Below, one piece after another: positions 8,135 to 52,591 of a stretch of DNA of 64,000 bases (position 1 is the first letter of the stretch; each line of letters starts with the position of its first letter). The notes beneath the pieces were generated by a model. That model searched no databases. It saw only the letters and a list, made by a program, of their open reading frames with translations, and had not been told where the DNA came from. Origin of the DNA: Candidatus Tenderia sp. (lineage in GTDB: Bacteria > Pseudomonadota > Gammaproteobacteria > Tenderiales > Tenderiaceae); the NCBI GenBank assembly GCA_031416075.1, contig JANOSY010000088.1:9504-73503 (forward strand), written 5' to 3'. The translations under genes were made by a program, and so were the position numbers.

Positions 8135-8184
8135 GGTTTAACTTTTCCGTTGAAATTATCGTGCGTGTGATTTTAGCCCATAAA

Positions 8185-8218: not shown

Positions 8219-8230
8219 CTCATATTTTGT

Positions 8231-8307
8231 TGGCGGAGTGGACGGGACTCGAACCCGCGACCCCCGGCGTGACAGGCCGGTATTCTAACCAACTGAACTA
8301 CCACTCC
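8231..8307 (-). tRNA. tRNA-Asp (anticodon GTC)
   Basis: The reverse complement GGAGTGGTAGTTCAGTTGGTTAGAATACCGGCCTGTCACGCCGGGGGTCGCGGGTTCGAGTCCCGTCCACTCCGCCA folds as a cloverleaf. Anticodon loop is CTGTCAC. Near-identical to E. coli tRNA-Asp. Confidence 0.93.
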
Positions 8308-8324
8308 AAACATCTAACTAAAAA

Positions 8325-8400
8325 TGGTGGGTGCTGACGGGATCGAACCGCCGACATTCGCCTTGTAAGGGCGACGCTCTCCCAGCTGAGCTAAGCACCC
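8325..8400 (-). tRNA. tRNA-Val (anticodon TAC)
   Basis: Reverse complement GGGTGCTTAGCTCAGCTGGGAGAGCGTCGCCCTTACAAGGCGAATGTCGGCGGTTCGATCCCGTCAGCACCCACCA. Anticodon loop is CTTACAA. Confidence 0.93.
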
Positions 8401-8411
8401 TGAAAGCGCGG

Positions 8412-8684
8412 CTAGTTTACGGCATCCTTGAGGGCTTTACCAGCCTTAAATGCAGGAACTTTTGCTGCCGCAATACTAATCGTTGCACCTGTCTGAGGAT
8501 TACGGCCATTACGTGCAGCACGCTCACGCACAGTGAATGTACCAAAACCAACCAAGGCAACATCATTCTGCTGTTTAAGTGCTTCTGTGATAGAAGAAAC
8601 CACTGCGTCCACGGCACGGCCTGCATCTGCTTTAGTCATGTCAGCACGCTCTGCAACAGCTTCAATCAACTCTGCTTTATTCAC
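8412..8684 (-). CDS. hupB: DNA-binding protein HU-beta
   Basis: 90 aa. [38 protein letters not shown]...[21 protein letters not shown], a canonical HU sequence. Confidence 0.95.
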
Positions 8685-8927
8685 TCGAAAACTCCTCTAA
8701 TTCTTCTATCCAATTGTCTGCTTGGTTCATAGCAAGCATAACTTCAAATAAACAATAACCCTAACGGTAACCACCGCACACCTACCAGACGCACCCGCGA
8801 ACTTCTTACCGAAGAAAGAGCTGCAGCGATACAACTTATTATTATGTGCCAGCCATTATTTTACGGCCATCTAAGACAGGGCAAAATTTATACATTTCCC
8901 CCTCCTTAATGTCAAGAAAAACCACGC

Positions 8928-19533: not shown

Positions 19534-19595
19534 GGCACACTCCAGTCAATACAGATGTCGGGACATTATAGGGGCATAGGGCGATGATTAAAACG

Positions 19596-20525
19596 TTATA
19601 ACGCCGCCCGGAAGCGCATTTGATACTCGATCAGGGTTGCCGCACTCAGCATAAAGACCCCCTGGCCGCCACGTTCAAACTCCAGCCAGACAAACGGCAC
19701 CTCAGAAAAACGCTCCACCAGTGCCGCCTCACTGTTGCCCACCTCTACTATCAATACCCCGTTTTCTGTCAGAAAATCGGGGGCCTGAGCTAACATTCGC
19801 AAAACAATCTCCAGGCCATCGTCACCGGCGGCAAGCCCCAGCGTCGGCTCACAACGGAACTCATCAGCCATGGCCGCCAAATCTTCGGCATCAACATAAG
19901 GGGGGTTTGAAACAATCAGGTCGTAACGTCGCCCGGCCAGACCATCAAACAGGTTCGACTCAATCAACTCGACCTGCTCGCTGGCATCGTGGCGCTCAAC
20001 GTTGATCTGGGCCACTGCCAGCGCGTCGGCGGAGATATCGGCCGCATCCACCGTCGCCCATGGAAAGGCCATGGCGCAGGCGATGGCAATACAACCACTA
20101 CCCGTACAGAGGTCAAGCACTGCCGCCACCTGATCTGCCTCTACCCAGGGGGAAAACTGCCGCTCAATCAGCTCAGCAATAGGCGAGCGTGGTACCAATA
20201 CCCGCTCATCCACATAAAACGGCAATTCGGCAAACCAGGCCTCGTGGGTCAGGTAGGGGGCGGGCAGGCGTTCATCGATACGGCGGCGCAGCAGTGCCAC
20301 CACCGCATGTTTTTCACTGTCTGTCAGGCGACCACGCAACAGCTCCACCGGCACCCCGGGTTTAAGATACAGGGCATGCAACACCAGGTAGAGCGCCTCA
20401 TCCACCGCATTATCGGTACCGTGACCAAAAAAGAGTCCTGCTTCGTTAAAGCAGCTAGCACCCCAGCGAGCAAAATCGACCACCGTCTGCAGCTGCATGC
20501 AGCCCACTTCACTTTTGTTACTCAC
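19596..20525 (-). CDS. prmB: 50S ribosomal protein L3 glutamine N5-methyltransferase
   Basis: [30 protein letters not shown] and the NPPY motif (VSNPPYV). I chose the GTG at 20525, 6 nt after AAGAGG, which gives 310 aa like E. coli PrmB. The ORF itself extends to 20597. Confidence 0.88.
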
Positions 20526-35700: not shown

Positions 35701-38700
35701 GCCAGCCAACCGCATCTCCTTTGAAAGCAAAGGGGAGGACGAACCTGTCGCCAGTAATGCCACATCGGCGGGTCGAGCGACCAACCGCCGGGTAGAGCTT
35801 CATATATATAGCGTGATCAGCACCACAACCCCACATATCCACGGTACTGCCACCACCAGTGAGCGTCTGAGCAGTACCATCACCGGCCTTACACCCGGTG
35901 AACAGCCAATAACCACCGCGACCGTTACCACAACCACGGAGTACAACAGCCAGTGGCTCGCCAGCCAGACCGCCAGTATTGAGTGGCTGCTGCCCCAGGA
36001 GCGACCCGCGCTCCCCACCACCAACATCGCCATCAAACACCACAGCGACCAGAACGTCACCCTCACCCTCAATGGCCAGCCCGTGGCCGCCATGAACTTC
36101 AACGGCACCCTCAACAACAGCCATGGTGCTGCCGTCAGCCACTGGGCCGGGGTTGATCTGAACGAGGGCGACAACCTCTTTCATGCCACCATCAGCAATG
36201 CCCAAGGTGAGTTTATTCAACAACTTAACCGCAACCTGCACTACTCCAGCGCCCCCGTGCGGGCAGAGATTGTGCCAACGCTCTCCACCCTCATTGCCGA
36301 TAGCATCACCCCGCCGGTCATCGCCGTACGCCTGTATGACAAAGACAGCCACCCCATCCACGCCGGCATGGAGATTGAGTACCAAATCAGCCCACCGCAC
36401 CAGCCCGCCCAAGAGAGTTTTAATACCGACAACATGGTTGCCGCCCCTGGCAGACGCCACTACGCCACCTCCGACAATGATGGTCTCATCCTGATCAAAC
36501 TCGCCGCCACCAACAGCACCGATGATCTACGTCTGCAGCTGCCCCTGGCCCACAACCGGACCGTAGAGTTAAAGAGCCGTCTCCAGGCCAAGGCCCGCGA
36601 CTGGATACTGGTGGGGCTTGCCGAAGGGGAGGCCGGTTTTAACAGCCTGAGTGGCAATATGGAGGCGCTCGACGGCAACGCCGCCCAGGATCATCTCTAC
36701 CAGGACCAACGTATCGCCTTCTTTGCCAAAGGCCAGGTGCTGGGTAAATGGCTGCTGACCCTGGCCTACGACTCCGATAAAGCACAACCACAAAAACAGG
36801 GGAACGATCCAGCGCTGTTCCAGGCCATCGACCCCGGCAGCTACTACACCGTCTATGGTGATGCCGGTCAAAACGGTTTTGATGCCGCCAGCAGCAAAAA
36901 GCTCTACCTCAAGCTGGAGCGCAACGCCTTCTACCTGCTCTTTGGCGACTACCAGACCCAGCTCAGCGAGACCCGTCTGGCCCGCTACGACCGCACCCTG
37001 ACCGGCATAAAGTCCCGTTATCAGAATGAACAATACAACCTCATGCTCTTTATCAGCGAAAACAGCCAATCCTTTGCCAAGGATGAGCTGCGCGGCCAGG
37101 GCAGCACCGGCCCCTACCCGCTGTCACGCAGCAACGTCGCCCTCAACAGCGAAAAGGTAGTGCTGGAGGTGCGCGACCGTTTCCGCAGCGAACAGATTGT
37201 CAGCAGCACACTGCTGGCGCGCCACAGCGACTACGACATCAACTATCTGGAGGGCAACATCACCTTCCGCGAGCCGGTATTCAGCACCGATGCCAACCTC
37301 AATCCGCAATACATCGTCATCAAATATGAGTCCTACACCGGCGACAGCCAGACCACCATCGGTGGCCGGGCCGAGGTGAAGGTCAACGACCAGCTCAAGA
37401 TCGGCGTTACCCAAGTGAGTGAAGGGCGCGCTACAGGTGATGCCCTGCTCGGGGCCGCCGATCTGCAATACAAGTTCAACGATGCCACCACCCTGCGCCT
37501 TGAGACGGCCCGCAGCCTGATTGCCGACGAAGGCAGCGGCAACGCCTATCTTGCCGAAGTTGAACACCAGACCGTCAACAGCAGTAGCAAACTCTATCTG
37601 CTGGATAACGACACCCATTTTGGTCTGGGACAAACCAACGCCAGCGAAAATGGCATGTACAAACAAGGGGTTGAGACACAGCTGCGAGCCAGCGACAATA
37701 TCAACATCAAAGGCCAGCTCTACCGCCAGGAGAGCAGCCTCAGCCACGCCAGCCGTGACCTGGCCGAGGCACAGGGCGAGATCAGCCGCGGCACTACCCG
37801 GCTGCGCGCCGGCCTGCGTGAGGTGCAGGATCAGCGCGGCGACAACAGCCAGCAGCAGTCGGAACAGCTCACCACCGGCATCAGTCAACAGCTGCTGGAC
37901 AGTAAGGTGACCCTGCGGGCCGACCGCGAGATCAACCTCAACAATGGCAATGACAGCATCGACTTCCCCGACAAAACCCGGCTTGGGGCCGACTACCACA
38001 TCACCCAGAAGATCAGCCTGTTTGCCGAACAGGAGGTGGCCAACAGCGACCTCCGCGATACCCGCCAGCGCCGTCTTGGTATCAAATCAAACCCCTGGAA
38101 CGGCGCGGAGATTTACAGCGGCCTGAGCCACTCCAGCAGTGATAACGGCACTGCAACCAGCGCCAATGTCGCCGCCCGCCAGCGCTGGCAGCTCAACCCA
38201 CAGTGGAGCGTTGATGCCGGTATCGAGCAGTCCCAAACCCTAAGCCAGAATCTGAACCAGAACCAAAGCAGCGGCCCAACCCTCAGCCCACCTGCCGCCA
38301 CGCCGTTCAACCTCAACAGCGGATTTGCCATCGGCAGCAACGAAGATTTCAGCGCCGCCTCCTTGGGTGTCACCTATAGCGACAAAGGGTGGCTCTGGAG
38401 CAGCCGTGTCGAGTCGCGCACCGGTGATCTGAGTGACCGTCGCCGCCTTGCCACCTCAGTACAGACATCACCACACAACGACCTCTCCATGCTCGCCTCC
38501 CTCAACCTGCTCACCAGCAGCAGCGCCCAGGGTGAACAGCAGGATAGCTCAACGGTGCAGCTCGGGGCCGCCTACCGCCCCAGCAATAGCCGCTGGCTGC
38601 TGCTGGATAAACTGACCCTGAAAAAAGAGCGCCATAACAACAGCACCCTCGACAGCAGCGGCTGGCGCATCATCAACCTGTTCAATGCCAATTACCGAGA

Positions 38701-39073
38701 AGGGCGCTGGCAGACATCGCTGCAATACGGTGCCAAGAGTGTTAAAGAGACCATCGACGGCAACGAACATAACCAGTTTGTTGACCTCAGCGGCATCGAG
38801 AGCCGTTATGATCTAACGCCAGAGTGGGACATCGGCCTGCATGGCAACATCCTGCACGCCTGGCAGCTCAACCAATATAACTACAACAGTGGTGTCTCGG
38901 TAGGCCACACCGTGGCCAAAAACATCTGGCTGAGCCTTGGCTACAACTTCAACGGCTTCCGCGACAGCGACTTTTCGCGCAGCAGCTATACCAGTCAGGG
39001 GCTGTTCCTCCGTTTCCGGATGAAATTTGACCAAACCACCGTGAAAGAGGCGATCCAGTGGGCCAGCCAATGA
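32777..39073 (+). CDS. Giant (2098 aa) outer-membrane-associated protein: DUF11 repeats, internal OmpA-like domain, probable C-terminal beta-barrel
   Basis: One continuous ORF. DUF11-like segments include GDLIRYSVQVENSTATTLNDVVLTESLP and IPYQVTLENRGVSASNLRLTLMIP. There is an SdrD-B/CarboxypepD_reg-like segment, GVRIYMEDGRYAISDERGMFHFDNLTPGNH. The OmpA_C-like segment is IHAIGHSDSRD...NQILSEYRAHEVANQL...GRATNRRVELHIY. The last roughly 800 aa have alternating beta-strand character and end GLFLRFRMKF plus 16 aa. Confidence 0.75.
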   Translation: MSCTVVRAITALCPGPLAGQRAPLHLYITTLLGFLVLLWSTTTLAVPPGTIISNVASINYTIGGLPGLPLSSNIDQFTVVAAANTVDGTMSVAAPGGNLYAGSPRATTITLNNTGTTLLNNQQLTITAPLNSQVTLTGSGVTLAASMSSSTTTTYIFNVADLPVAGSQDLQLVLTAAPTAVSRPQTFTVAHSVDGTTLQQQSLTLSALPRTAARLEILQHSLSNRALSAIVNSTLIRGESGTFTPIAPPTLPEAPDRLVTDSPITLEPANVFSNIQTLFIRVTDLDQNLDSTVQESLDITIKLPDRDDYVTLRILETGIATGIFSGYVTFEKNSATSSGALPVKSNSKLLVSYTDTIDGDDSVAETVLIDPYGVVFDSATGQPLDGYTVQMVNTDTGLPATVYGDDGVSSYPATVITGSPVTDSSGNLYSYNTGEYRFPLAPAGNYRLVVTSPSSAQYRWPSTQSTEQLHNLSRSNLAITLGSRGERFPLLPGPPLHIDIPVDPLTTQLYLQRSANRESVATGDLIRYSVQVENSTATTLNDVVLTESLPHGFRLEPGSINMDNNPQQPATIEPQGTTFTLNLGAMIAGERRQIRYVSAVGAARQGLASSSSHARANSGAANSNHARHDAMVFDELMRGRALLLGQVIINPTDNDPTPASGLKGVRIYMEDGRYAISDERGMFHFDNLTPGNHLVQLDTATLPDHYSLVMGDQDTRNAHSPSSQFIDLQGGTLWRTEFHVARKPTPTGALSLQLSNTAPDSQGNIPYQVTLENRGVSASNLRLTLMIPATTHYQPGSSHVGGHPVGDPDIVGNVLIYRLNNDHPSGGWQRQLHLTLQGDTGNSASGDSRELTTKASLQFDTPAQQNQRLPLLQHTFTLTTEQVKQGEQKVLAESLTLDNFNGSSNDLSEEHKTVVQQLAERWAGQDIHIHAIGHSDSRDIIQKEKEDQRLFANNQILSEYRAHEVANQLRQQLSLPANRISFESKGEDEPVASNATSAGRATNRRVELHIYSVISTTTPHIHGTATTSERLSSTITGLTPGEQPITTATVTTTTEYNSQWLASQTASIEWLLPQERPALPTTNIAIKHHSDQNVTLTLNGQPVAAMNFNGTLNNSHGAAVSHWAGVDLNEGDNLFHATISNAQGEFIQQLNRNLHYSSAPVRAEIVPTLSTLIADSITPPVIAVRLYDKDSHPIHAGMEIEYQISPPHQPAQESFNTDNMVAAPGRRHYATSDNDGLILIKLAATNSTDDLRLQLPLAHNRTVELKSRLQAKARDWILVGLAEGEAGFNSLSGNMEALDGNAAQDHLYQDQRIAFFAKGQVLGKWLLTLAYDSDKAQPQKQGNDPALFQAIDPGSYYTVYGDAGQNGFDAASSKKLYLKLERNAFYLLFGDYQTQLSETRLARYDRTLTGIKSRYQNEQYNLMLFISENSQSFAKDELRGQGSTGPYPLSRSNVALNSEKVVLEVRDRFRSEQIVSSTLLARHSDYDINYLEGNITFREPVFSTDANLNPQYIVIKYESYTGDSQTTIGGRAEVKVNDQLKIGVTQVSEGRATGDALLGAADLQYKFNDATTLRLETARSLIADEGSGNAYLAEVEHQTVNSSSKLYLLDNDTHFGLGQTNASENGMYKQGVETQLRASDNINIKGQLYRQESSLSHASRDLAEAQGEISRGTTRLRAGLREVQDQRGDNSQQQSEQLTTGISQQLLDSKVTLRADREINLNNGNDSIDFPDKTRLGADYHITQKISLFAEQEVANSDLRDTRQRRLGIKSNPWNGAEIYSGLSHSSSDNGTATSANVAARQRWQLNPQWSVDAGIEQSQTLSQNLNQNQSSGPTLSPPAATPFNLNSGFAIGSNEDFSAASLGVTYSDKGWLWSSRVESRTGDLSDRRRLATSVQTSPHNDLSMLASLNLLTSSSAQGEQQDSSTVQLGAAYRPSNSRWLLLDKLTLKKERHNNSTLDSSGWRIINLFNANYREGRWQTSLQYGAKSVKETIDGNEHNQFVDLSGIESRYDLTPEWDIGLHGNILHAWQLNQYNYNSGVSVGHTVAKNIWLSLGYNFNGFRDSDFSRSSYTSQGLFLRFRMKFDQTTVKEAIQWASQ

Positions 39074-39092: not shown

Positions 39093-42000
39093 ATGGACAG
39101 TACGATGAGATACGGACGTTTTATTCAGCTCTGCCTGCTGGCCACCCTGCTGCTGGTGGTACTTTTGCCTCGTCCAGGGGTAGCGGCCATCACCGCCACC
39201 ACCCTATTTGAAGGGTCAACGGATGGCGATGCCAGCGCTTATACTGGACCCTCACTCAGCCCGTCGGCCAACAACCTGATTCTCGTCTGGATAACCAATA
39301 CCCGCTCCTCCTCCCCCACCGTGCCCACCTTTACCGGTAACGGCCTCACCTGGGTGCAGGTCGCCACCGTCACCTGGGGCAGCAGCGGCTCCCCCACCGC
39401 ACGTACCACCCTGTTCCGGGCCATGGGATCCTCCCCCGCTACCGGGATCAACAGCATCGATTTTGCCGGCAATACCCAGACCGGCGTGGCGATGTCAATG
39501 ATCCAGTTCAACAACGTCGACATCACCGGCAGCAACGGTGCCAACGCCCTGGTTCAGAGTGTCACCGGCAGAACTGATAGCGCCTCCTCCACCGCCGGGC
39601 TGAGCCTCACCCTGGCAGCGCTGGGCAATGTTGCCAACGCCTCTGTGGGCGGCTTTTCCAACTTTATCAACTCCGCCACCTCCATCTCCCCAGGGTCCGG
39701 CTACACCGCCTCGTCCGGCACCACCTATCTGGCCCCCAGCATCAGCCTGCGCGCCGAGTGGAAGAGTGCGGGCAGCACCATCGTCAACGTCACACAGAGC
39801 GGTACCTCCCACATTGGCGGGATCGCCGTCGAACTCAAGGCCGACCTCTGTGCCGGCAATGTGGTCACCACCATCGCCAACAGTGGTGATGGCTCCCTGC
39901 GTGAATGTATCATCAAGGCCAACCTCAACCCCGGCACCACCATCACCTTCAACATTACCGCTGCGGCCAACCAATCTTCCGGTGCCAACTCATGGTGGCG
40001 TATCACCCCCACCACCGCGCTACCCACCATCACCGCTGCCAATACGGTGATTGATGCCACCACCCAGACCAGTAATCGTGGCAATACCAATACCCTCGGC
40101 CCGGAAGTTGAACTCAACGGTGCCACCGTCGGTGCCGGGGGGTGGGACGGTTTTGGTGTGGCTTCGCCAGCCACCGGAGTCATCATCCGCGGGTTCATCA
40201 TCAATCAGTGGTCAGGGTCAGGTATCTCACTCTGGAGCGGCAGCGGCACCATCAGGGGCAACTACATCGGTACCAACTACGCCGGTACCAGTGCCCTGGC
40301 CAATACCAGCTACGGCCTCTACCTCAATACCAATGGCAATACCGTCGGTGGCACCAGTGCTGCGGACCGTAACGTCATTGCCGGTAACGGCGGGCCTGGC
40401 ATCTACATTGTGAGCAACAGCAATACCGTGCAGGGCAACTACATCGGCGTCAACGCCAGTGCTGGGGCGATAGTTGCCAATAGTGGCCACGGCGTACAGA
40501 TACTCTCCGGTGCCACCGGCAATACCATTGGGGGCACAGCGGCGGGGGCAGGCAATGTGATTGCTGGCAACGGCGCTGATGGCATCAACCATAGTTCAAC
40601 AGGCAGCAATACCGTACAAGGCAACTACATCGGTACCAACGCCAGCAGCGCGACACTCTCTAATGGTGGCAATGGCATTGCCATCTCTGCCGGCACACTC
40701 AATGTGGGCAACGCCTCTGAATCCCAATCAAACATTATTGGCCCCAACAGTGGTGCGGGCATCAACCTGGCGGGCGGAACAGTGAATCTGGCAGGCAGTG
40801 TCACCGTGCGTGGCAACATGGCCCTGGCCAGCGGCACACTCGCCATGGGCAGCGCCACACTCAACCTCTCCGGTAACTGGAGCCGTACCAGCACCACCGT
40901 CACAACCGGCACCTCCACCGTGGTGCTCAACGGCACTGCCCTGCAGAGCCTGACCATGAACGGCAGTAACTTCAATAATCTGACCATCACCAACGGCAGT
41001 GTTGCAGGTATCAGTTTTAATGATGGTTTTAACGCCGCCAACATCACCAATACCACCCCCGCCTCCCGGCTGACCTTTAAGGCGGGCGCAACCTACACCC
41101 TCTCCGGCACCCTGACACTGGTCGGCAGCAGTGGCAACCAGATCATTCTGCTCAGCGACTCCCCCGGCACCCGCTTTACCCTGAACCCAACTGCTGGCGC
41201 GCAGAGTGTCAACTATGTCAACGTCAAGGATTCACAGGCCTCAACCAACAACATCACCGCCGATAACTCCACCAACAGTGGTGGCAATGATGATGCCGAG
41301 GCCGCACCACGCTGGGTCTTTAATGCCCCCGATACCACGCCGCCCGCCAGGATCATCGACCTGACGGTCACCTCCTCCACCACCTCATCCATCACCCTGA
41401 ACTGGACTTCACCGGGAGATGACAATAACAGTGGCACGGCTACCAGCTATGACCTGCGTTACTCCACCTCGCCCATCACGGCGGGCAACTGGGCCAGCGC
41501 CACACAGGCCGTTGGCGAACCAACACCCTTGGTGGCCGGTAGCAGCCAATCATTTAGCGTGACCGGCCTGGCCGCTGCCACCACCTACTACTTTGTAATG
41601 ACCACCAGCGATGAGGTCCCCAATACCTCCGCCCTATCTGACTCAGCGGTTGGCACCACCGGCGGCGGTGGTGGCGGCAATGTGAGCTACTACGCCAAAC
41701 GCAGTAACAGTGTCTCCATCGCCTCCGGCATCACCAGCAACAGCGGCTCCTGCGGCACAGATCCAACCGCCTACTACATTGAAGAGCTGTCAAAAAACAT
41801 CAGCGACATGTGTGTCACAGCAAATGCCTACCGCTGGGAGCAGTTGACGGCCGGCAGCTACTCGGACCACTACTTCAACACCGCCTATGTGGCCAATACC
41901 ACCGTTACCGGCGTCTCTTATCAGGTCACCATCCGCGACAGCGGAACAGTAGGTTTCCAGCTTTTTTATGTCACCTCCGGCGGTACCAAAACCTATCTTG

Positions 42001-44711
42001 GCACTGAAGTCACCCAGGTAAACAGTGGCATAGAAACCAATAACTACATCCTTAACCTCTCCGGCCAGTCTGGCACCATCCCCACCGGGGCAAAACTTGG
42101 GTTTCGTACCCGTGGTATCTCTGTCAGCCCCAGCTTCAGGATCTATGTGGGTAATCTGGATGGCAGGACACCCAGCAACCTCTCCGGTCATCTAATCGTC
42201 AACGAGGCCGTGGGCAGCAGCGATACCACCGCCCCGGCCAGTGTCACGCTCTCTACCGGTACCATCACCAACAACTCCGTGCTGCTGAACTGGGTATCAC
42301 CGGGGGATGATGGCAATACCGGCACCGCCCAGATCTACGACATCCGTTACTCCACCGCCGCCATCACGGCGGGCAACTGGGCCAGCGCCACCCAGGTAGG
42401 CGGGGAACCAACACCTCTGGTGGCGGGCACTGCCCAGACCTATACCGTGACCGGGCTGGCCCCCAATACCCTCTACTACTTTGCCATCAAAACCGGCGAC
42501 GAGACACCCAACTGGTCAGCGGTCTCCAACTCCCCCAGCGCCACCACCTACGATCCACCGGTGGGTGGCTTTAGTGTCGATAATGTGATCCCCGCCACCC
42601 AGATCAGCCAGTCCACCAACGGTTCAGGCATCATCACCATCAACTGGAAGGGGCGCGACAATCAGGCCAATAACGTCACACTCAAAACCTTTCAGTACAG
42701 CGTGGACGGTGGGGCTAGCTGGAACGCCCCCACCAACGGCGACGCCTCCGCCGCACTCTCCGCCACCTGGAGCAACAACGGCGGCAGTGGCTGGACCACC
42801 GCCACCACCTTGGCTGCCGCTCCTGTCAACAGCTTCACCTTCAATACCAAACATGCCAATGTCTCGGGGTTAAACGGGGTGGACCAGAACGATGTACGGG
42901 TCCGGTTTCTATTACGTGATGCCACTATGGATAGCCAGAGCTATGTCACCTCGACCGATTTTCGTATCGATGCCCTTGCCCCTACCGCGACCATTGGCAG
43001 CGCCATTTACGATGCTGCCAACGACCTGCTGACCATCACCGGCACCAACTTCACCACCATTGCGGCGGCCAGCACCGACATCAAAGCCTATGTCGACTGG
43101 AGCAAATTTGTCTGGGACATCAACGGCGACAACGCCACCACCACCGACATCAGCTTTGTGCTGGGTGACATCACCAGCCTGATCATCACCGACGATACCA
43201 CCATCACCCTGCAGTTCAGTGCCGCCAAAGGGATCGCCATCGAAGCCACCGCCGGCTACAGCACCACAGGCGGGGTCGACACCCTCGATGTTGCCGCCGG
43301 TTTTGCCCGAGACGACTACGGCAATGCCGCCACCACCGATGCGGTGGCCAACGGGCCACTCGTTACCACCTCGGTCTCAGGGATACTCTACGATACCGAC
43401 CGCACCACCAGCCTCGGTTTTGGCATGACGGTACGGCTACTCATCAACGGCGCCAGCATGGGCTCCACCACCACCGACGGCAGTGGTCGCTATACCTTCT
43501 GGAATAACGTCAGTGCCGGCAATGCCATTCTGGTCTACATCGACAATGGTGCCAGCACCGCCATCAGCGCCACCGTTACCGCCAACGCCAGCCTCTCGGA
43601 CTTTGATCTCTACGCCAGCCATCTGGTGGCCCGCCACGATAATGGGGGCGCACTCAGCAACGCCAACCTGGGAAGTGCCAAGGGGGCGTATGTCGACACC
43701 GATATTGTTTACTCCGTCACCGGCAGCGCGTTAACCGTCAGTGGCAGCGCCACCCGGCTACACATCCCGGCGGGCAAAAGTTTTACCCCGGAGGGCAACG
43801 TCACCACCCCGGCCATGAGTAATCTTGGCACCTTTGTCGGCGGCAGTGGTGCCATTACCATCAATGGCAACCTGAGTAACAGCGGCAGTTATACCGCCAG
43901 CAGCGCCACCACCACTGTTGCTGCTGACTTCAGCAACAGCGGTACCTTTACAGCCGCAGGCGGTACCGTGCTGCTTAACGGTATCAATCAAAACATCACG
44001 GGGACCACTACCTTCTTCAACCTGACCAAAACCGTGGCCACCGCCGACACCCTATTTTTCAGCGTCGGCTCCACCACCACCGTCACGGGTAGCGCCACCC
44101 TGCAGGGGGCATCGGGCCAGCCACTGAGTCTGCTCTCGATCACCCCCGGCAGCCGCTGGAACTTCAACATCGGCAGCAGCGCCACTAAGTCCTTCAGTTT
44201 TCTGAATGTGATCGACAGTGACGCCTCAGGCTCTGCCGCTGCCAAAAAACCGCTCATCGCCCAACCCAGCAACTCTACCGACAGCGGCAACAATGTGGAC
44301 TGGTTTGGCCTGCCCTCCATCTCGGTGATCAAATCCAGTACCCTGATATCCGACCCCGTTAACGGCACCACCAGCCCGCTGCATATCCCGGGGGCAATCC
44401 TTAACTATCAGATCCTCACCACCAACTCTGGCAACGGCTCACCCGATACCAATACCGTGGTGGTAACCGATGCACTGGACTCCAGCAAGCTTGAGTTTGA
44501 TGTCACCACCGGCATCACCTTTACCGCCAATACCTCGGGACTGACACTGGGCACAGTGAGTTATGCCCATACCGCCACCCCCACCACCTATACCTACACC
44601 CCCACCGGCCCCTACGACGCCAATGTGGCGGGCATCAAGATCACCACCAGCGGTACGTTTGCCAGCGCCGGTGCCAGCTTTACCCTCAACTTCCGCGTCC
44701 GCATAAAATAG
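39093..44711 (+). CDS. Giant (1872 aa) secreted beta-helix / FN3 / DUF11 surface protein (adhesin-like)
   Basis: Signal-like N-terminus RFIQLCLLATLLLVVLLPRPGVAA. It carries right-handed beta-helix repeats (NVIAGNGGPGIYIVSNSNTVQGNYIG, NVIAGNGADGINHSSTGSNTVQGNYIG), two FN3-like modules, and a C-terminal DUF11 domain (ISVIKSSTLISDPVNGTTSPLHIPGAILNYQILTTNSGNG). Confidence 0.75.
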   Translation: MDSTMRYGRFIQLCLLATLLLVVLLPRPGVAAITATTLFEGSTDGDASAYTGPSLSPSANNLILVWITNTRSSSPTVPTFTGNGLTWVQVATVTWGSSGSPTARTTLFRAMGSSPATGINSIDFAGNTQTGVAMSMIQFNNVDITGSNGANALVQSVTGRTDSASSTAGLSLTLAALGNVANASVGGFSNFINSATSISPGSGYTASSGTTYLAPSISLRAEWKSAGSTIVNVTQSGTSHIGGIAVELKADLCAGNVVTTIANSGDGSLRECIIKANLNPGTTITFNITAAANQSSGANSWWRITPTTALPTITAANTVIDATTQTSNRGNTNTLGPEVELNGATVGAGGWDGFGVASPATGVIIRGFIINQWSGSGISLWSGSGTIRGNYIGTNYAGTSALANTSYGLYLNTNGNTVGGTSAADRNVIAGNGGPGIYIVSNSNTVQGNYIGVNASAGAIVANSGHGVQILSGATGNTIGGTAAGAGNVIAGNGADGINHSSTGSNTVQGNYIGTNASSATLSNGGNGIAISAGTLNVGNASESQSNIIGPNSGAGINLAGGTVNLAGSVTVRGNMALASGTLAMGSATLNLSGNWSRTSTTVTTGTSTVVLNGTALQSLTMNGSNFNNLTITNGSVAGISFNDGFNAANITNTTPASRLTFKAGATYTLSGTLTLVGSSGNQIILLSDSPGTRFTLNPTAGAQSVNYVNVKDSQASTNNITADNSTNSGGNDDAEAAPRWVFNAPDTTPPARIIDLTVTSSTTSSITLNWTSPGDDNNSGTATSYDLRYSTSPITAGNWASATQAVGEPTPLVAGSSQSFSVTGLAAATTYYFVMTTSDEVPNTSALSDSAVGTTGGGGGGNVSYYAKRSNSVSIASGITSNSGSCGTDPTAYYIEELSKNISDMCVTANAYRWEQLTAGSYSDHYFNTAYVANTTVTGVSYQVTIRDSGTVGFQLFYVTSGGTKTYLGTEVTQVNSGIETNNYILNLSGQSGTIPTGAKLGFRTRGISVSPSFRIYVGNLDGRTPSNLSGHLIVNEAVGSSDTTAPASVTLSTGTITNNSVLLNWVSPGDDGNTGTAQIYDIRYSTAAITAGNWASATQVGGEPTPLVAGTAQTYTVTGLAPNTLYYFAIKTGDETPNWSAVSNSPSATTYDPPVGGFSVDNVIPATQISQSTNGSGIITINWKGRDNQANNVTLKTFQYSVDGGASWNAPTNGDASAALSATWSNNGGSGWTTATTLAAAPVNSFTFNTKHANVSGLNGVDQNDVRVRFLLRDATMDSQSYVTSTDFRIDALAPTATIGSAIYDAANDLLTITGTNFTTIAAASTDIKAYVDWSKFVWDINGDNATTTDISFVLGDITSLIITDDTTITLQFSAAKGIAIEATAGYSTTGGVDTLDVAAGFARDDYGNAATTDAVANGPLVTTSVSGILYDTDRTTSLGFGMTVRLLINGASMGSTTTDGSGRYTFWNNVSAGNAILVYIDNGASTAISATVTANASLSDFDLYASHLVARHDNGGALSNANLGSAKGAYVDTDIVYSVTGSALTVSGSATRLHIPAGKSFTPEGNVTTPAMSNLGTFVGGSGAITINGNLSNSGSYTASSATTTVAADFSNSGTFTAAGGTVLLNGINQNITGTTTFFNLTKTVATADTLFFSVGSTTTVTGSATLQGASGQPLSLLSITPGSRWNFNIGSSATKSFSFLNVIDSDASGSAAAKKPLIAQPSNSTDSGNNVDWFGLPSISVIKSSTLISDPVNGTTSPLHIPGAILNYQILTTNSGNGSPDTNTVVVTDALDSSKLEFDVTTGITFTANTSGLTLGTVSYAHTATPTTYTYTPTGPYDANVAGIKITTSGTFASAGASFTLNFRVRIK
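41331..41660 (+). repeat. FN3-like module, copy 1 (internal duplication within the 1872-aa gene)
   Basis: DTTPPARIIDLTVTSSTTSSITLNWTSPGDDNNSGTATSYDLRYSTSPITAGNWASATQ...TTYYFVMTTSDEVPN. It shares a near-identical nucleotide stretch (catcacggcgggcaactgggccagcgccac) with copy 2. Confidence 0.8.
42222..42548 (+). repeat. FN3-like module, copy 2
   Basis: DTTAPASVTLSTGTITNNSVLLNWVSPGDDGNTGTAQIYDIRYSTAAITAGNWASATQ...TLYYFAIKTGDETPN. Confidence 0.8.
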
Positions 44712-47445: not shown

Positions 47446-48004
47446 TCTGACAAACCCCCATCACCATAGTAACAATATCAACAACATGCCCTCCGCTTGT
47501 TACCGTTAATAGTTAATATAAAAACCACTTTAAAATATGGCTTTTATAATTAATGAGTATTTCAAACCACTACGACAAATAAAATAAATTTTATAAATCA
47601 TAAATACCGCAAAACAATTACCCATCACACCTGTGAAACCTCACTCAAATACCTTTATTTAACACCTGTTTTTTTCAATTAAAACAAGAACATTAATGCA
47701 CTTTTATTGTTTATTTATAACGCTAAAACAACATAAATAACCATATTAAAAAAGACTTTATTAATACCCATATATGAAAAAAATATCACTCAACACAAAC
47801 TCAATATGTTTAGCACAAAATAACTTAATGAAAATTTAAGTTTTACGGTGTAGGATAAATTTCACCCTCAGCGACATAACCAGTTATTTCTTGGAATGTT
47901 GCACTCTCGGGATCACGAGAAGAGCAGAGGGGGGAGTACTGATATTTGAATGGTTCAAATATTAGAGGACTATGATTTAAATCACATTTACTAAGGAGAT
48001 TATT

Positions 48005-48127
48005 ATGGGTGGCGGCGGCGGTATGGGCGGTGGCGGTATGGGCGGTGGCGGCGGCGGTGGTATGGGCGGCGGCGGCGGTGGCGGCATGGGCGGCGGTGGC
48101 GGCGGTGGCGGTGGCGGCGGTATGTAG
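48005..48127 (+). CDS. Micro-ORF 1: 40-aa Gly/Met-only peptide MGGGGGMGGGGMGGGGGGGMGGGGGGGMGGGGGGGGGGGM
   Basis: Hand-translated. AAGGAG at 47993-47998, a 6-nt spacer, ATG at 48005, TAG at 48125-48127. Followed by a structured 3' region and terminator. A paralogue lies at 48540. Absent from the ORF track, which shows only the antisense artefact 47843..48139. Confidence 0.6.
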   Translation: MGGGGGMGGGGMGGGGGGGMGGGGGGGMGGGGGGGGGGGM

Positions 48128-48208
48128 CTCCCGGCTCACTATGCACCCTCTCTCTCATGTGAGGGGCTCATAGCACAGTTGTAATGGCATATTGCCATGC
48201 GATGAAAT

Positions 48209-48236
48209 GGGGGGGCATTATGTCCCCCTATTTTTT
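48209..48236 (+). terminator. Rho-independent terminator of micro-ORF 1 unit
   Basis: GGGGGGGCA-tta-TGTCCCCC followed by TATTTTTT. Confidence 0.7.
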
Positions 48237-48539
48237 ATGCCAAAAAACAACACCTACCCCCTATCCTCGCCCTCCATATCCCGTGTGCTCAATAGCTTAA
48301 TTACACACAAAAAATAAATCATTTTTCCTGTGCGGAATATATTTTCTATTTCCCAACAAATTTAAGGGAAGGTTAACATACCCGATGTAGTATCGATAAC
48401 ACCTTAAACGTTGTGCCTGCTTTTTGGCTTAACGACTTCTCTGAAACTATGACGAGATAATAAGGCAGTACCGGTCTTTGAGTTATCAACGACCCAATAT
48501 AAATATCAATTACTTTTAAATAAAACTAAGGAGTTAATC

Positions 48540-48608
48540 ATGGGTGGAATGAACGGTGGTCGTGGTGGTATGGGTGGCGGCGGTGGCGGTGGTGGCGGCG
48601 GCATGTAA
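48540..48608 (+). CDS. Micro-ORF 2: 22-aa Gly/Met-rich peptide MGGMNGGRGGMGGGGGGGGGGM
   Basis: Hand-translated. AAGGAG at 48528-48533, a 6-nt spacer, ATG at 48540, TAA at 48606-48608. It has the same SD geometry, the same MGG start and the same GGM-stop end as micro-ORF 1. Confidence 0.6.
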   Translation: MGGMNGGRGGMGGGGGGGGGGM

Positions 48609-48687
48609 TATGCCCGCGTCACGCACTCCCTCTCACTATTGAGAGGCATGTTGCGTACCGCTATGGCTAACGCCATACAATAAAAAT

Positions 48688-48716
48688 GGGAGGGCATGTC
48701 TGCCTCCCATTTTTTT
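48688..48716 (+). terminator. Rho-independent terminator of micro-ORF 2 unit
   Basis: GGGAGGGCA-tgtc-TGCCTCCC followed by ATTTTTTT. Confidence 0.7.
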
Positions 48717-48800: not shown

Positions 48801-50576
48801 TTATGCCTCGTTATCAGACTGCCACAGCACTGAAACCTTATATTCTGGATGGGATATATAGAGTTCATCATGTGTACCTACTGTAATTGAGCCATTGCCA
48901 TTAAAATAGAAGACTCTGTCGGCATTGCGAATAGACGAATAACGATGGGCGATAACAAAAGTCGTGCGACCTGTACGTAATGTATCCAGGGCAGCCACTA
49001 CCTCTTTCTCTGATTGGCTATCCAATGCTGAAGTTGCCTCATCCATAATTAAAAATGGAGCATCCATTAACATCGCCTGTGCAATTGCAATACGTTGATA
49101 CTGTCCACCTGATAGCTCAACACCGCCGGATCCTACGCGAGTATCAAGCCCATCACTCAACGCTGTAATAAATTGCCATGCGCCACTCACTTCACAGGCG
49201 TGTACCATCTGCGACTCAGTGGCATCCGGCTTCACTAATAGTAAGTTGGTGCGAATCGTATCGTGCATGATGAACGGGGTTTGCCAAATGATTGAGAATT
49301 GCTCACGTAATGAGGCGATAGTTACAGTGCGAATATCCACCCCATCAATTGTAATACGGCCTTGCTGAGGGTCATGAAAACGCATCAGCAGCCGGGCAAG
49401 TGTTGATTTTCCAGCACCGCTTGCTCCAACCAGGGCGACTGTTTCTCCGGCGCGCACTTCAAGATTGACACCTTGTAAGAGCAGCTCCCCTCCCGTGTAG
49501 GCAAAATCTACACTCTCAAAACGAATACCTCCCTCAGTCACAACTAATGGCTCTGCATCAACAATATCCTGGGTCTCAGGTTTTAGATCAAATATCGCCA
49601 AAACACGCTGCGCAGCCCCAAAATCACCTTGTAACTGCATTGGTGCTTGTGCAAACCCACGCACCGGCACCGAGAGATACCCCAAGTAGAGTAGGAAACT
49701 GACCATCGCCCCTATACCAAAACCGTGACTCTCTATCCGATCGATCCCGACGAACACTATCACGATCCCACAAAAATAGATCATGGCCGCCAGTGTGACC
49801 GTGAACCCTTGGTCCAACCAGCGCATCTTCATGCCCCAGTAACGTGCCTGTTCGTAACACTCACCATGCCTAGCCGCCATGCGTGTCTCGCCCCGGACTG
49901 AGCTTATGCCACGCAGATTGCTTAAGACCTGTTCTTCAAAGGCTAATAGTTTGCCCGCTTCATGAAAAAATCGTTGCGATGCCTTACGCTTGCGCGGGCC
50001 GAATAACCCCTGATGTATGACAAACAGTGGCACAAACATTAACGCCACCAGGGCCATATACCAATCGATCCAAAACAACATGCCACAATAAAAAAATAGG
50101 GTTAACAGGTGAGAAACAAGAAAGAAGGGGACTTCGAGTACCATGTTCTGCACACTGTCCACATCACTGCTAAGGCGGGCAAGCACGTCCCCCTTCTGTA
50201 GATGTGCAGCACCGGGCGCAGAGACATCAAACAGATGACGCAGGGCAGCTTGACGCAGCCGCCCCACAAAACGAAGCCCCAACCAGTTAGCCATCAGGGT
50301 GGAGGAGAAGTGAAATCCCTGGTTGATGACAACAACCAGTATCAACCAGAGCAGCACCGATTTAACCTGATCAAAACGCCCGGCCTGTAAGTGGTCAAAC
50401 GGTAACCCTATCAGCCAGACCATGGCGGTATTGGTCACGGTTAACCCTACAATAGTCCCTATGACCAAACTGACAAACACCACATCGGCACGTGCGTATG
50501 GCAAAAAATGGCGGAAGACTTGCCAGAATTGGGACCTTTGCACGACAGTTTCGCCCTGCTGAGGGGTATCACTCAT
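48801..50576 (-). CDS. ABC exporter, fused permease/ATPase (MsbA-type half transporter)
   Basis: 591 aa. The N-terminal half has six TM spans. Walker A GASGAGKST, signature LSGGQYQRIAIA, Walker B FLIMDEATSALD. There is no N-terminal C39 peptidase domain. The start overlaps the asnB-like stop (ATGA). Confidence 0.9.
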   Translation of the reverse strand: MSDTPQQGETVVQRSQFWQVFRHFLPYARADVVFVSLVIGTIVGLTVTNTAMVWLIGLPFDHLQAGRFDQVKSVLLWLILVVVINQGFHFSSTLMANWLGLRFVGRLRQAALRHLFDVSAPGAAHLQKGDVLARLSSDVDSVQNMVLEVPFFLVSHLLTLFFYCGMLFWIDWYMALVALMFVPLFVIHQGLFGPRKRKASQRFFHEAGKLLAFEEQVLSNLRGISSVRGETRMAARHGECYEQARYWGMKMRWLDQGFTVTLAAMIYFCGIVIVFVGIDRIESHGFGIGAMVSFLLYLGYLSVPVRGFAQAPMQLQGDFGAAQRVLAIFDLKPETQDIVDAEPLVVTEGGIRFESVDFAYTGGELLLQGVNLEVRAGETVALVGASGAGKSTLARLLMRFHDPQQGRITIDGVDIRTVTIASLREQFSIIWQTPFIMHDTIRTNLLLVKPDATESQMVHACEVSGAWQFITALSDGLDTRVGSGGVELSGGQYQRIAIAQAMLMDAPFLIMDEATSALDSQSEKEVVAALDTLRTGRTTFVIAHRYSSIRNADRVFYFNGNGSITVGTHDELYISHPEYKVSVLWQSDNEA

Positions 50577-52591
50577 ATGTGTGAATCAGTAAAACAGCGC
50601 GCCGTTTTGTTGATAAACAGGTCGTACAGAATCTGCACCGTCAGGATCGAAAACAGCACCCACTCCTGCCTCATTGCCCGGTAATAGGCATTGCCATCAG
50701 GGGGTGTGGGCAGGTTCACCAACTCATCCAACAGCGCAGTCACCACTTGAGGATTAAAGATGCCCGCCTGTTGAATCTTCTCTTCAGAGAGAAATTGCGA
50801 CAACCGGTCTGCATTTTTTGGCGTAAAAAACCATTCACGAATAGGGGTGTAAAAGGCACGTTTTTTATACGAAGTGGGATGTTCTGGTAACTTTGGCAAC
50901 ATTAACTTACGCAAAATATACTTCTCATCCAGGCCATTCAGCTTGAGTGCTGGTGGCACCTTTGCCGCTAACTCCACCAGTTTGTGATCCAGAAATGGGA
51001 CCCGCGCCTCCACACCGTTAGCCATGGCCAGTCGATCTGCCCGCCACAATATCCAACCTGGCAGACGGGTCTTTATCTCCAGATACAGGGACTGGTTGAG
51101 TGGATGCAACCCTTCCAGCCTGGGCTTTAAGGTGGTGATCAACTCTGCCATCTGCTGATCGTGGTCGGCGGACTGCTCCAGAAAATCATCGCTGAAGATC
51201 CCTTCACTCCCTTCACGAAGGATTTGCCAGAAGTCATACCAGACGGGATAACAACCAAATTGCGCCACCACCTTCTGCTGCTGCTGCGACTCATGTAAAC
51301 GAGCCAGCATCTGCAGATAATCAGGGGCAAAATCATTGCCAAAATCATCTAAATAGTAACGCAGCCGCTCCTCCTGCCCCCCCTTCTCATTACCCCACTG
51401 ACGGATGTAATCCTGGCGGAAGCAGTCATACCCCCCCAATATTTCATCTGCACCTTCACCGGTATACACCACTTTAAACTGATTTTTACGCACCAGCTCC
51501 GACAACATCAGCAGCGGGATATCCAGCGCCATACGTTGTGGCTGCTCGACGCTGTACATCGCCTCCACCAACACATCCAGATAATCATCACTGCGCTGGT
51601 CATCCATATACAGGTCATGCAGCTCAACACCGATGTGGTCGGCAATACTGCTAGTAATTGGATACTCGTCATTAGCACTATTGGAAAAGCGGATAGTAAA
51701 TGCCTTTACACTCTGCTCCGCAGACTGCTGCAACCAATAGGTGGTAGTGGCCGAGTCAACACCGCCGGAAAGATAGGAGCCAATAGGTACCTCGCCAATC
51801 ATGTGTGAGCGCACAGCGTCCTGCAAAACACCATCAAACTCTGCCAACCACTGCTCTTCACTGCGATCCTCATACTCACCCTCTCGGGGAAACTCCAGAT
51901 CCCAATAACAGTCAATTTGCGGCTGCTTACCTGCCACCAGTGTCATGGTATGGCCGGGGGCCAACTCAACCACCCCGGCAAAGAGCGTATGTGGCGCAAT
52001 ATTAAATTGATAGGAGAAAAAATTCCGTACCGATTGGGGATTAAAGGCGGGAGTGATCTGCCCCGATGCAAACAGCGATTTCACTTCTGAGGCACCATAC
52101 AGGGTCGTGCCGTCCCAATGGTAAACCAGCGGTTTGATACCCAACCGGTCCCTGGCCACAAATAGTTCGTTAGTTAATGAGTCATGAATAGCAAACGCAA
52201 ACATTCCCCGCAGGCGCGGCACACACTGCGCGCCATCGCGCTGGAACAGATGGAGAATCACCTCCGTATCCGATTGCGTCTGAAACAGAACGCCCTCCTG
52301 CTCCAGTTCAGCCCGCAACACCTTGTAATTATAGATTTCACCGTTATAAACAATGGCATAACGATCATCAATGCTTAACATCGGCTGGGCACCGCCACGA
52401 ATATCAACGATACTCAAACGGGTATGGCCTAACGCCACACCACCACGCACCAAATGGTTCTGTGCATCGGGTCCCCGATGTATCAGCGCATGCACCATGC
52501 GCCCTATTATTAATTCACTCGACTCACTCTGCGCCAACGGCTCAGCGGATTGATGATGGCCAGCACGATAGATGAAACAGATCCCACACAT
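50573..52591 (-). CDS. Asparagine synthetase B-like glutamine-dependent amidotransferase
   Basis: MCGICFIY carries the N-terminal nucleophile Cys2 when the start is the second Met at 52591. GHTRLSIVD, and the PP-loop SYLSGGVDS. About 672 aa. Confidence 0.88.
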   Translation of the reverse strand: MCGICFIYRAGHHQSAEPLAQSESSELIIGRMVHALIHRGPDAQNHLVRGGVALGHTRLSIVDIRGGAQPMLSIDDRYAIVYNGEIYNYKVLRAELEQEGVLFQTQSDTEVILHLFQRDGAQCVPRLRGMFAFAIHDSLTNELFVARDRLGIKPLVYHWDGTTLYGASEVKSLFASGQITPAFNPQSVRNFFSYQFNIAPHTLFAGVVELAPGHTMTLVAGKQPQIDCYWDLEFPREGEYEDRSEEQWLAEFDGVLQDAVRSHMIGEVPIGSYLSGGVDSATTTYWLQQSAEQSVKAFTIRFSNSANDEYPITSSIADHIGVELHDLYMDDQRSDDYLDVLVEAMYSVEQPQRMALDIPLLMLSELVRKNQFKVVYTGEGADEILGGYDCFRQDYIRQWGNEKGGQEERLRYYLDDFGNDFAPDYLQMLARLHESQQQQKVVAQFGCYPVWYDFWQILREGSEGIFSDDFLEQSADHDQQMAELITTLKPRLEGLHPLNQSLYLEIKTRLPGWILWRADRLAMANGVEARVPFLDHKLVELAAKVPPALKLNGLDEKYILRKLMLPKLPEHPTSYKKRAFYTPIREWFFTPKNADRLSQFLSEEKIQQAGIFNPQVVTALLDELVNLPTPPDGNAYYRAMRQEWVLFSILTVQILYDLFINKTARCFTDSHI

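Follow-up and report, generated by a model that had tools for sequence, protein, structure and literature searches.

Can a peptide made almost entirely of glycine and methionine be the product of a gene in its own right and, if so, with what partner would it act? The question is raised by a 64,000-nucleotide stretch of DNA from Candidatus Tenderia sp. (Gammaproteobacteria; assembly GCA_031416075.1, contig JANOSY010000088.1, forward-strand positions 9,504 to 73,503), hereafter the window, which carries two plus-strand micro-open reading frames (micro-ORFs) of this composition between positions 48005 and 48608. Together with relatives in other genomes they appear, from their sequences, to form a family missing from annotations, whose near Gly/Met-only peptides are short (21-46 aa) and have essentially no leader. 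The two micro-ORFs are very probably translated, and their products are likely partners of an AsnB-like enzyme encoded beside them.

Translation and expression signals of the micro-ORFs

Micro-ORF 1 (W1; 48005-48127, plus strand) encodes 40 aa, MG5MG4MG7MG7MG11M, closed by a TAG stop; its 34 Gly and 6 Met residues are written with only three codons, GGC (22), GGT (12) and ATG (6). Micro-ORF 2 (W2; 48540-48608, plus strand) encodes 22 aa, MGGMNGGRGGMG10M, with a TAA stop (16 Gly, 4 Met, 1 Asn and 1 Arg). Each is preceded by a Shine-Dalgarno (SD) sequence, AAGGAG, read directly at 47993-47998 and 48528-48533, respectively, with a 6-nt spacer to the ATG. They are the sole G/M-rich ORFs in a six-frame scan of the 64-kb window. 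The two units can be aligned over ~400 bp (74% mean column identity), including ~150 bp upstream and ~110 bp downstream of the ORFs. Because these flanks align too, W1 and W2 are paralogous transcription units and more than two repeats. An initial annotation, made from the window sequence alone, had described them as independent paralogous units, each with its own terminator, that are truly translated. Its coordinates, peptides and identical SD and spacer proved exact on re-reading, the further details that it listed (start and end pattern, kept G/M composition, C-terminal Met) all hold, and the alignment of the flanks and the terminators described below bear out its view of the units.

Relatives were collected from loci around homologues of the neighbouring amidotransferase, AsnB, in GTDB genomes, and more loci were reached through a protein database and contigs. 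The nearest AsnB homologues come from an uncultured Chromatiaceae metagenome-assembled genome (MAG; 86% identity), a Candidatus Tenderia MAG (78%) and other gammaproteobacterial MAGs (51-72%); the remaining homologues are generic, at ~33% identity. The first scan yielded micro-ORFs in loci L002 (two), L003 (two), L006, L010 and L011. Later sampling added L205, L275 and L278, each with the gene order asnB, ATP-binding cassette (ABC) exporter, micro-ORF, and seven more loci of the same AsnB subfamily that have no micro-ORF. None was found in ~69 loci (1.18 Mb) around the ~33%-identity homologues.

Metagenomes were also scanned independently of AsnB with the pattern M-G4+ / M-G4+ / M-G3, which is too unspecific for a family census. 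Among the 120 matches listed, 115 are G/M-rich linkers within large proteins and two are stand-alone micro-ORFs, L134 and L178, the latter on a contig of only 1.7 kb, too short for its context to be judged. In viral contigs the same pattern gave 66 matches, all inside larger ORFs and none a stand-alone micro-ORF. Tracts of the type (M G3-6)n are frequent low-complexity segments in both the metagenomic (L082-L201) and the viral sets (L209-L274, including giant-virus MAG contigs), which come from many different environments. Since G/M tracts are frequent inside large proteins, the composition is not rare in itself; it is the stand-alone gene form that is rare. The total comes to 14 stand-alone G/M micro-ORFs, of which one is truncated where its contig ends: W1, W2 and 12 others of 21-46 aa, the latter from 10 loci of related Gammaproteobacteria that include relatives of Ca. 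Tenderia.

In each complete copy the last sense codon is Met, followed at once by a stop (TAA or TAG), and all copies but one start with MGG. W2 belongs to an exporter-proximal paralogue lineage (W2, L002b and L275) that retains Asn5 and one Arg: its orthologue L002b reads MGGMNGGRGGMG4MG7M, and the L275 peptide, MGGMNGGMGGMGGRGCGGGGM, contains a Cys in addition. Besides these, residues other than Gly and Met occur in L278 (Arg) and in L003b, the exporter-proximal copy of a Ca. Tenderia MAG (13970-14095, minus strand). The true start of L003b lies 60 nt further upstream, behind an AAGGAG SD, so that its product consists of MPVVIAPPIIPAPPAPAPGG, a 20-aa N-terminal extension made of Pro, Ala, Ile and Val, followed by MGMGGMGMGGMGGMGGGGMGM. 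The extension is CCA/GCA-rich and so resembles a GGT/GGC tract read as its reverse complement; an inversion within the repeat may be its origin, and base pairing with G-rich mRNA sequence further along is conceivable. In the same locus, ~4 kb from the micro-ORFs, a Gly/Asn/Thr-rich protein of ~370 aa (18934-20046, minus strand) ends in ...GQMAGMGGMGGQQGGGMMGM-stop, a G/M tail with a final Met that resembles both the micro-ORF peptides and GroEL.

A tract of this kind could be a coding sequence or, alternatively, an untranslated GGY trinucleotide repeat that works as DNA or as RNA (as a G-quadruplex, a CGG-type hairpin or a small RNA), with the ORF incidental. Consistent with the latter, copy lengths differ by multiples of three, as expected from slippage, two assemblies (L001 and L278) break inside the repeat, the 3' untranslated region (UTR) is conserved and structured, and gene callers never report the ORFs. 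Because slippage of a trinucleotide repeat yields the same steps of three, these were given no weight as evidence of coding. However, an AGGAG or GGAGG motif lies at the optimal spacing of 5-8 nt before the ATG in all 11 tabulated units (L003b being counted from its true start), and no complete copy has lost its SD, ATG or Met-stop over a range of AsnB divergence that reaches down to ~51% identity. Substitutions fall at third codon positions only: four of four aligned differences between W1 and its orthologue L002a, and five of five between W2 and L002b, including a synonymous AAC to AAT change in the lone Asn codon. Nor is the tract a pure repeat. The Gly codons of the 11 ORFs (without the L003b extension) are a mixture of GGC (137), GGT (120) and GGA (12), with no GGG among 269; GGG makes up 20.6% of the Gly codons of the window genes, and the chance of finding none among the 50 Gly codons of W1 and W2 is 1e-5. 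In the same 11 ORFs the Gly runs are interrupted by in-frame ATG codons only, except that W2 and L002b each have a single Asn and a single Arg codon. Ribosome-binding sites are absent from the antisense poly-Pro and poly-Ala frames. Finally, the region of the unit 1 transcript folds no more stably than shuffled sequence (z = -1.1), and an Rfam search (the window at the gathering threshold, the micro-ORF region at an E-value threshold) returned only tRNAs and sub-threshold noise.

An element acting solely without translation is therefore very improbable, whereas W1 and W2 are, with high confidence from this pattern, translated genes, as the initial annotation had claimed. The frame-breaking indels and losses of SD or ATG that it had named as grounds for refutation were looked for in the homologues and not found. 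The micro-genes are under clear purifying selection in several lineages.

The initial annotation had also stated that no such family is described, and this agrees with the searches. Nine micro-ORF peptides and the window 40-mer are absent from a collection of 15 billion proteins by exact look-up; the micro-ORF peptides match no Pfam or NCBIfam model at E up to 10; and no description of the family was found in the literature on Gly/Met peptides, Tenderia small proteins and asparagine synthase (AS)-like enzymes of RiPPs (ribosomally synthesised peptides that are modified after translation). A homology search with the 40-aa peptide against 5.8 billion proteins scored none of 8000 candidates at E up to 10, a null that says nothing because the query is of low complexity. 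The two independent short-read assemblies that end inside the GGY repeat of a micro-ORF (L001, 5644-5757; L278, 4283-4398) help to explain why the family went unnoticed: it is probably under-represented in assemblies, with loci possibly split at the repeat.

In the Tenderia-type loci each micro-gene forms a small transcription unit of its own: a conserved dyad and a -10-like hexamer come first, a strong SD precedes the ORF, and three hairpins, the last of them a terminator, make up the 3' side. In unit 1 the upstream block (47825-47856), ~150 nt before the ATG, comprises a TTAA-N7-TTAA dyad (47825-47839) and the hexamer TAGGAT (47851-47856); by alignment, the block of unit 2 (48362-48393) has the same dyad at 48362-48376 and TAGTAT at 48388-48393. 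The block is kept in all six aligned units (W1, W2, L002a, L002b, L003a and L003b), and L275 has a similar dyad, TTAAT-N5-ATTAA. The hexamer varies at positions 3-4 only (TAGGAT, TAGTAT, TACTAT, TACAAT). The dyad and TAnnAT element are thus a candidate operator and promoter; a promoter scan found no canonical sigma-70 promoter upstream of either unit. A MerR-type promoter with a long spacer was considered and dropped, the dyad being off-centre in the spacer. The 5' UTR of unit 1 contains a palindrome (47942-47962), ATATTTGAA-TGG-TTCAAATAT, the sole consensus helix in an alignment of seven 5' UTRs, with compensatory changes in four of nine pairs; it may be either an RNA hairpin or a DNA operator.

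The 3' UTR of unit 1 (48128-48238) holds a first hairpin, CCCTC...GAGGG, a second, ATGGC...GCCAT, and an intrinsic terminator with a stem at 48209-48229 and a T-run. The same three-hairpin layout is found in unit 2 (48609-48716), where the terminator lies at about 48686-48715 (stem at 48692-48705, plus T-run). RNAalifold recovers the three helices from seven units, the last being the terminator, with compensatory changes in 8 of 28 pairs; three terminator-like sites were found, against 1.0 expected from shuffles. The unit 2 terminator has an A-run and a T-run on its two sides and could also stop the convergent asnB-ABC operon. In L010, at 1418-1441, and at the aligned positions of L011 and L134, a different upstream dyad, CTGTC-N8-GACAG, is conserved; set against the TTAA-N7-TTAA dyads of the Tenderia-type units, it appears that one peptide family is under different regulators in different lineages.

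Association with an AsnB subfamily

The minus-strand operon convergent with the micro-ORFs lies 190 bp downstream of them. It encodes a glutamine-dependent amidotransferase of the AsnB type (50573-52591, 672 aa; Pfam GATase_7 and Asn_synthase) and an ABC exporter (48801-50576, 591 aa; Pfam ABC_membrane and ABC_tran). The TGA stop of asnB overlaps the ATG of the exporter gene (ATGA). The exporter is of the ABCB/MsbA type without a C39 peptidase domain; ABCB1, Sav1866 and MsbA are its closest relatives in the PDB, and it matches no NCBIfam equivalog at cut-off. AsnB shows the AsnB fold, an intact PP-loop ATP site (SGGVDS) and an intact N-terminal glutaminase (MCGI with Cys1, RGPD, NGEIYN and SDTEV motifs), as do AS-like amidotransferases. 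Its best solved relatives are a hydroxyamidotransferase (7ylz) and E. coli AsnB (1ct9), and it remains below the cut-off of the E. coli-type AsnB model NF006949 (286 bits against 499).

The initial annotation had not noticed this neighbourhood. Every micro-ORF with an assessable context lies 58 nt to 2.8 kb from a member of one AsnB subfamily, and a micro-ORF is present in 8 of the 21 loci fetched through that subfamily. L134, found without using AsnB, has its micro-ORF 58 nt upstream of a same-subfamily asnB. Three arrangements occur: a convergent asnB-ABC operon followed by the micro-ORF (window, L002, L003, L205, L275 and L278); asnB, an unknown gene of 815 aa and the micro-ORF (L006); and micro-ORF, terminator and asnB (L010, L011 and L134). 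In the window clade (AsnB identity of at least 78%) the first arrangement is found in six of six loci, with variable genes beyond the micro-ORFs. The micro-ORF-linked enzymes fall into three separate clades of the subfamily tree. As the linkage spans three gene orders, three clades and ~50% enzyme divergence, inherited synteny alone is a poor explanation, and a functional partnership between the micro-ORF peptides and the AsnB-like enzyme seems likely.

Several observations weigh against a specific partnership of this kind. AsnB passes the asparagine synthase equivalog model TIGR01536 (436 bits; cut-off 267). It belongs to a large subfamily that comprises more than 300 clusters at 90% identity, mostly named asparagine synthase, and 13 of the 21 sampled loci have no micro-ORF nearby, including a sister clade at 72-75% identity in which asnB lies in the context histidine kinase, asnB, cspA, mutM. 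No alignment column separates micro-ORF-linked from unlinked AsnB. The evidence for linkage was gathered mostly through AsnB itself, the window and L134 being the only unbiased observations. Because the subfamily is large, uniform and mostly unlinked, AsnB is probably not a dedicated maturase, and it may have another main substrate. Either the peptides make use of a single, general activity of the enzyme, or the unlinked genomes encode such peptides elsewhere. The neighbourhood of cspA is a second conserved context of the subfamily: in L004, L009, L012, L202, L204, L206 and L277, the gene that comes next after asnB is a cold-shock gene of the cspA type, and in most of them a hybrid histidine kinase gene stands before asnB, with mutM and an ABC-2 transporter cluster after cspA.

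The same uniform and mostly unlinked subfamily would be expected if the peptides were translated but acted independently of AsnB, as free chaperone chains resembling the GroEL tail or as sacrificial Met antioxidants, with the adjacency of asnB reflecting co-regulation or shared ancestry. The evidence for coding serves this explanation equally well, and it is in keeping with the prevalence of G/M tracts in larger proteins (115 of the 120 metagenomic matches listed and 66 of 66 viral ones) and with the functional importance of the Gly-Met-rich tails of GroEL (PMC11978752, PMC12571646). By analogy, a chaperone-like or antioxidant role is possible. However, the subfamily linkage survives three gene orders and ~50% divergence of the enzyme, the invariant C-terminal Met-stop points to the C-terminus, and the exporter is translationally coupled to asnB, so that action without AsnB is unlikely.

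The third arrangement bears on another alternative, the translation-coupled sensor of tRNA supply that the initial annotation had listed among possible roles. The micro-ORF would be a leader that senses Gly-tRNA, Met-tRNA or one-carbon status and controls termination before asnB, the peptide being a by-product. L010, L011 and L134 indeed have a micro-ORF, a hairpin and a terminator immediately before a same-strand asnB; in L010 only 3 nt separate the end of the T-run from the asnB ATG, without a visible SD of its own for asnB. The housekeeping look of AsnB would also suit a regulated gene. This fits those three loci only. In all six loci of the window clade the micro-ORFs are convergent with asnB-ABC and have their own terminators, with nothing downstream to regulate; the window thus has no leader and terminator upstream of asnB on the same strand, and no enrichment of Asn codons. 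The amino acid of the regulated enzyme, Asn, is nearly absent from the peptides (one codon in one paralogue lineage), two paralogous copies are maintained, and composition is constrained over the whole length and at the C-terminus, which is not the case in classical leaders. A non-exhaustive look revealed no convincing antiterminator alternative, and the fold of the unit 1 transcript region, no better than that of shuffles, also counts against a sensor, which is improbable.

Other genes flank the module. The window is core genome, with nusA-infB-rbfA-truB-rpsO-pnp on one side and xseA, guaBA and tig-clpPX-lon elsewhere; the pnp-xseA interval contains only asnB, the ABC exporter gene, the two micro-ORFs and genes for a Dabb lipoprotein and an M23 peptidase. 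Since the M23 group includes Gly-Gly endopeptidases, the peptidase, encoded two genes upstream, was considered as a processing enzyme and rejected: it is adjacent only in the window and L002, not in L003, L205 or L275, and is therefore probably coincidental core-genome context. Just upstream of xseA are two tandem giant plus-strand genes, 32777-39073 and 39093-44711, for proteins of 2098 and 1872 aa; the latter product is repetitive and rich in Gly, Thr, Ser, Asn and Ala, and its sole NCBIfam match is a weak partial one to TIGR00868, far below cut-off. In L006 (5936-8383, plus strand) and L008 (11902-14601, plus strand), asnB is followed by a gene for a protein of 815-899 aa with two predicted membrane segments and a HELGY motif, which matches no Pfam family and is not similar to the SpeE-like membrane protein of L134. 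That protein, in which a spermidine-synthase-like domain is fused to ~13 predicted membrane segments, is the L134 representative (1978-4668, minus strand) of a large protein encoded divergently from the micro-ORF in all three loci of the third arrangement (L010, 1-1400, and L011, 1-2324, both minus strand); it could there take the membrane or export role of the ABC pump.

A possible route of amidation and export

The preferred reading, in which the peptides act with AsnB, suggests the following route. The peptide would be synthesised in the cytoplasm by the ribosome, and the initiator Met probably removed, since Gly follows it. No micro-ORF peptide contains Asp or Glu, and the carboxyl of the invariant C-terminal Met is therefore the sole group on which an adenylating enzyme of the AsnB type could act. 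AsnB would adenylate this carboxylate and amidate it with glutamine-derived ammonia, and the neutral amidated product would be pumped out by the ABC exporter. Outside the cytoplasm, the very flexible poly-Gly chain with its 4-9 thioethers would bind soft metals (Cu(I)/Ag(I)) or take up oxidants.

Precedent exists for the chemistry: the AS-like enzymes TsrC, ScdTA and PesC amidate or nitrilate the C-termini of RiPP-pathway peptides (PMC13060819). The invariant Met-stop suggests that the C-terminus itself matters, and the translational coupling of asnB and the exporter gene implies that the product of the enzyme leaves the cytoplasm in the window clade. A precursor gene, a leaky terminator and then an enzyme gene is also a layout typical of many RiPP clusters, and L010, L011 and L134 match it. 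Among the roles listed by the initial annotation, that of a RiPP precursor is thus the candidate best supported, through the conserved asnB-ABC linkage. The element of a RiPP cluster that is present is a ribosomally encoded peptide gene; a division into leader and follower is not, the peptides being G/M from end to end with only L003b carrying a non-G/M N-terminal extension. The module has no leader peptide, RiPP recognition element (RRE) or protease gene, which tells against the proposed route, and the L003b extension and the Cys of L275 mean that 'Gly/Met-only' is not absolute. Export by the ABC transporter in the window clade is slightly favoured. The whole chain of synthesis, C-terminal amidation and export is put at just under an even chance, and amidation as the specific modification is proposed tentatively.

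An AsnB-like enzyme could instead cyclise the peptide, the N-terminal Gly amine exposed by Met removal attacking the adenylated C-terminus to give a head-to-tail macrolactam. The chemistry would be analogous to that of lasso-peptide cyclases and beta-lactam synthetase, and many lasso peptides use Gly1. Nearly all micro-ORF peptides start with Met-Gly, which would expose Gly1, and an AsnB-like enzyme, an ABC exporter and a small precursor recall the McjC/McjD layout. Lactam formation is known for AS-family enzymes (PMC13060819). However, the glutamine-hydrolysing domain of AsnB is fully intact, which speaks for ammonia transfer and against a lasso-type cyclisation; with the NCBIfam lasso cyclase model NF033535, AsnB reaches 200 bits where the cut-off is 525; a gene for a B-type leader peptidase or RRE is lacking; and peptide length varies from 21 to 46 aa. 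Cyclisation is thus quite improbable.

The end function is a matter of lesser confidence than C-terminal amidation. Methionine-rich domains are known Cu(I) ligands (PMC11840665), and the Cu(I) binding suggested in the initial annotation finds some echo at two distant loci, L010 and L011, where a Crp/FNR regulator and two cupredoxin-type multicopper-oxidase proteins are encoded beside the module (L011, next to the micro-ORF and asnB, 6570-7700 and 7769-8941, plus strand; the same pair in L010, 4605-5729 and 5760-6920). Both proteins carry HCH copper motifs; one has a Tat signal, and the other has no signal and two internal G/M tracts (e.g. GMGGGGMGGGGMGGG). The pair looks like a split multicopper oxidase, exported perhaps as a hetero-complex. 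The Cu(I) 'Mets' motif consists of three or more Met at MX1-2M spacing. Against a copper ligand, the Met residues of the micro-ORF peptides are mostly 3-11 residues apart (W1 spacers of 4-11 Gly), with MX1-2M spacing only in the MGGM start of the W2-type peptides and in L003b (MGMGGMGMGGMGGM), and the window module contains no copper-related genes. A copper-related end function is accordingly rather doubtful. The same doubt attaches to the most specific form of the hypothesis, that of leaderless Gly/Met natural products which, amidated by a housekeeping-looking AsnB and exported, would act as thioether ligands in the periplasm or outside the cell, a chalkophore-like carrier or buffer of Cu(I)/Ag(I), in Tenderiales and related chemolithotrophic Gammaproteobacteria.

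Whatever their function, these micro-genes are invisible to gene callers, protein databases and family libraries. A peptide with essentially two kinds of residue, among them the sole thioether amino acid, is a test of how minimal a functional peptide can be. If the partnership with AsnB is real, a leaderless class is added to the ribosomal peptide natural products, and enzymes annotated as asparagine synthase tailor peptides; if the peptides are indeed amidated chalkophores, a large 'asparagine synthase' subfamily would really, or also, be a peptide C-terminal amidase. Depending on the end function, a new way of handling extracytoplasmic copper or oxidants by metal- and electrode-oxidising bacteria could be involved.

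Comparison with known systems

The closest parallel in enzyme chemistry is with TsrC (thiostrepton), ScdTA (scytodecamide) and PesC (nitrilobacillins), where, as in the window, an ATP- and glutamine-dependent enzyme of the AsnB fold is encoded beside a small precursor gene (PMC13060819). These enzymes act on the C-terminal carboxylate of a peptide, the only carboxyl that the micro-ORF peptides possess. Their substrates, however, are leader-containing and heavily modified RiPPs with dedicated enzymes, whereas here neither a leader nor another tailoring gene is present, the peptide is of essentially two residue types, and the enzyme comes from a large uniform 'asparagine synthase' subfamily.

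Lasso peptide clusters (McjA, McjC and McjD) share with the window a small precursor ORF, an enzyme of the AsnB family and a half-size ABC exporter that lacks a peptidase domain, and the processed N-terminal residue would here be Gly. They differ in having a B-protein with an RRE and an Asp or Glu acceptor at core position 7-9, neither of which is found here, where in addition the glutaminase is intact and the cyclase model remains far below its cut-off.

The mccA gene of microcin C7 encodes a 7-aa peptide ending in Asn that is modified by the ThiF-like MccB to give a Trojan-horse antibiotic. Like the micro-ORFs, it is a very short ORF with a strong SD, and its transcript is closed by a terminator that either precedes the enzyme genes or stands apart from them. 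Adenylation of the peptide, modification at its C-terminal carboxyl and export follow one another, as proposed here, the difference being an enzyme of the AsnB type in place of the ThiF-like MccB.

The C-terminal tail of GroEL/Hsp60, (GGM)4M, is the closest natural all-Gly/Met sequence and the only well-known one, and its last residue, too, is Met. The tail is flexible or polyproline II-like and weakly hydrophobic (PMC11978752, PMC12571646). Unlike the micro-ORFs, which have irregular spacers of G2-G11 and their own expression signals, it is a stretch of 13 residues with a regular GGM period in a 57-kDa chaperonin and not a stand-alone gene.

The Mets segments of CueO, CopA/PcoA and Ctr1 resemble the micro-ORF peptides in presenting thioether ligands within a flexible, Gly-containing sequence, and the split multicopper oxidases beside the module in L010 and L011 carry near-identical G/M tracts that look like these peptides. 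In the Mets segments, however, Met residues are 1-2 residues apart, usually with His or Asp, whereas here they are mostly separated by 3-11 Gly, with no His or Asp.

The Gly/Met composition is without precedent in the databases and literature searched. The system is best described as belonging to a known kind, in which an AS-like tailoring enzyme and an exporter accompany a small ribosomal peptide; it is unusual in the composition of the peptide, the absence of a leader and the housekeeping appearance of its partner enzyme.

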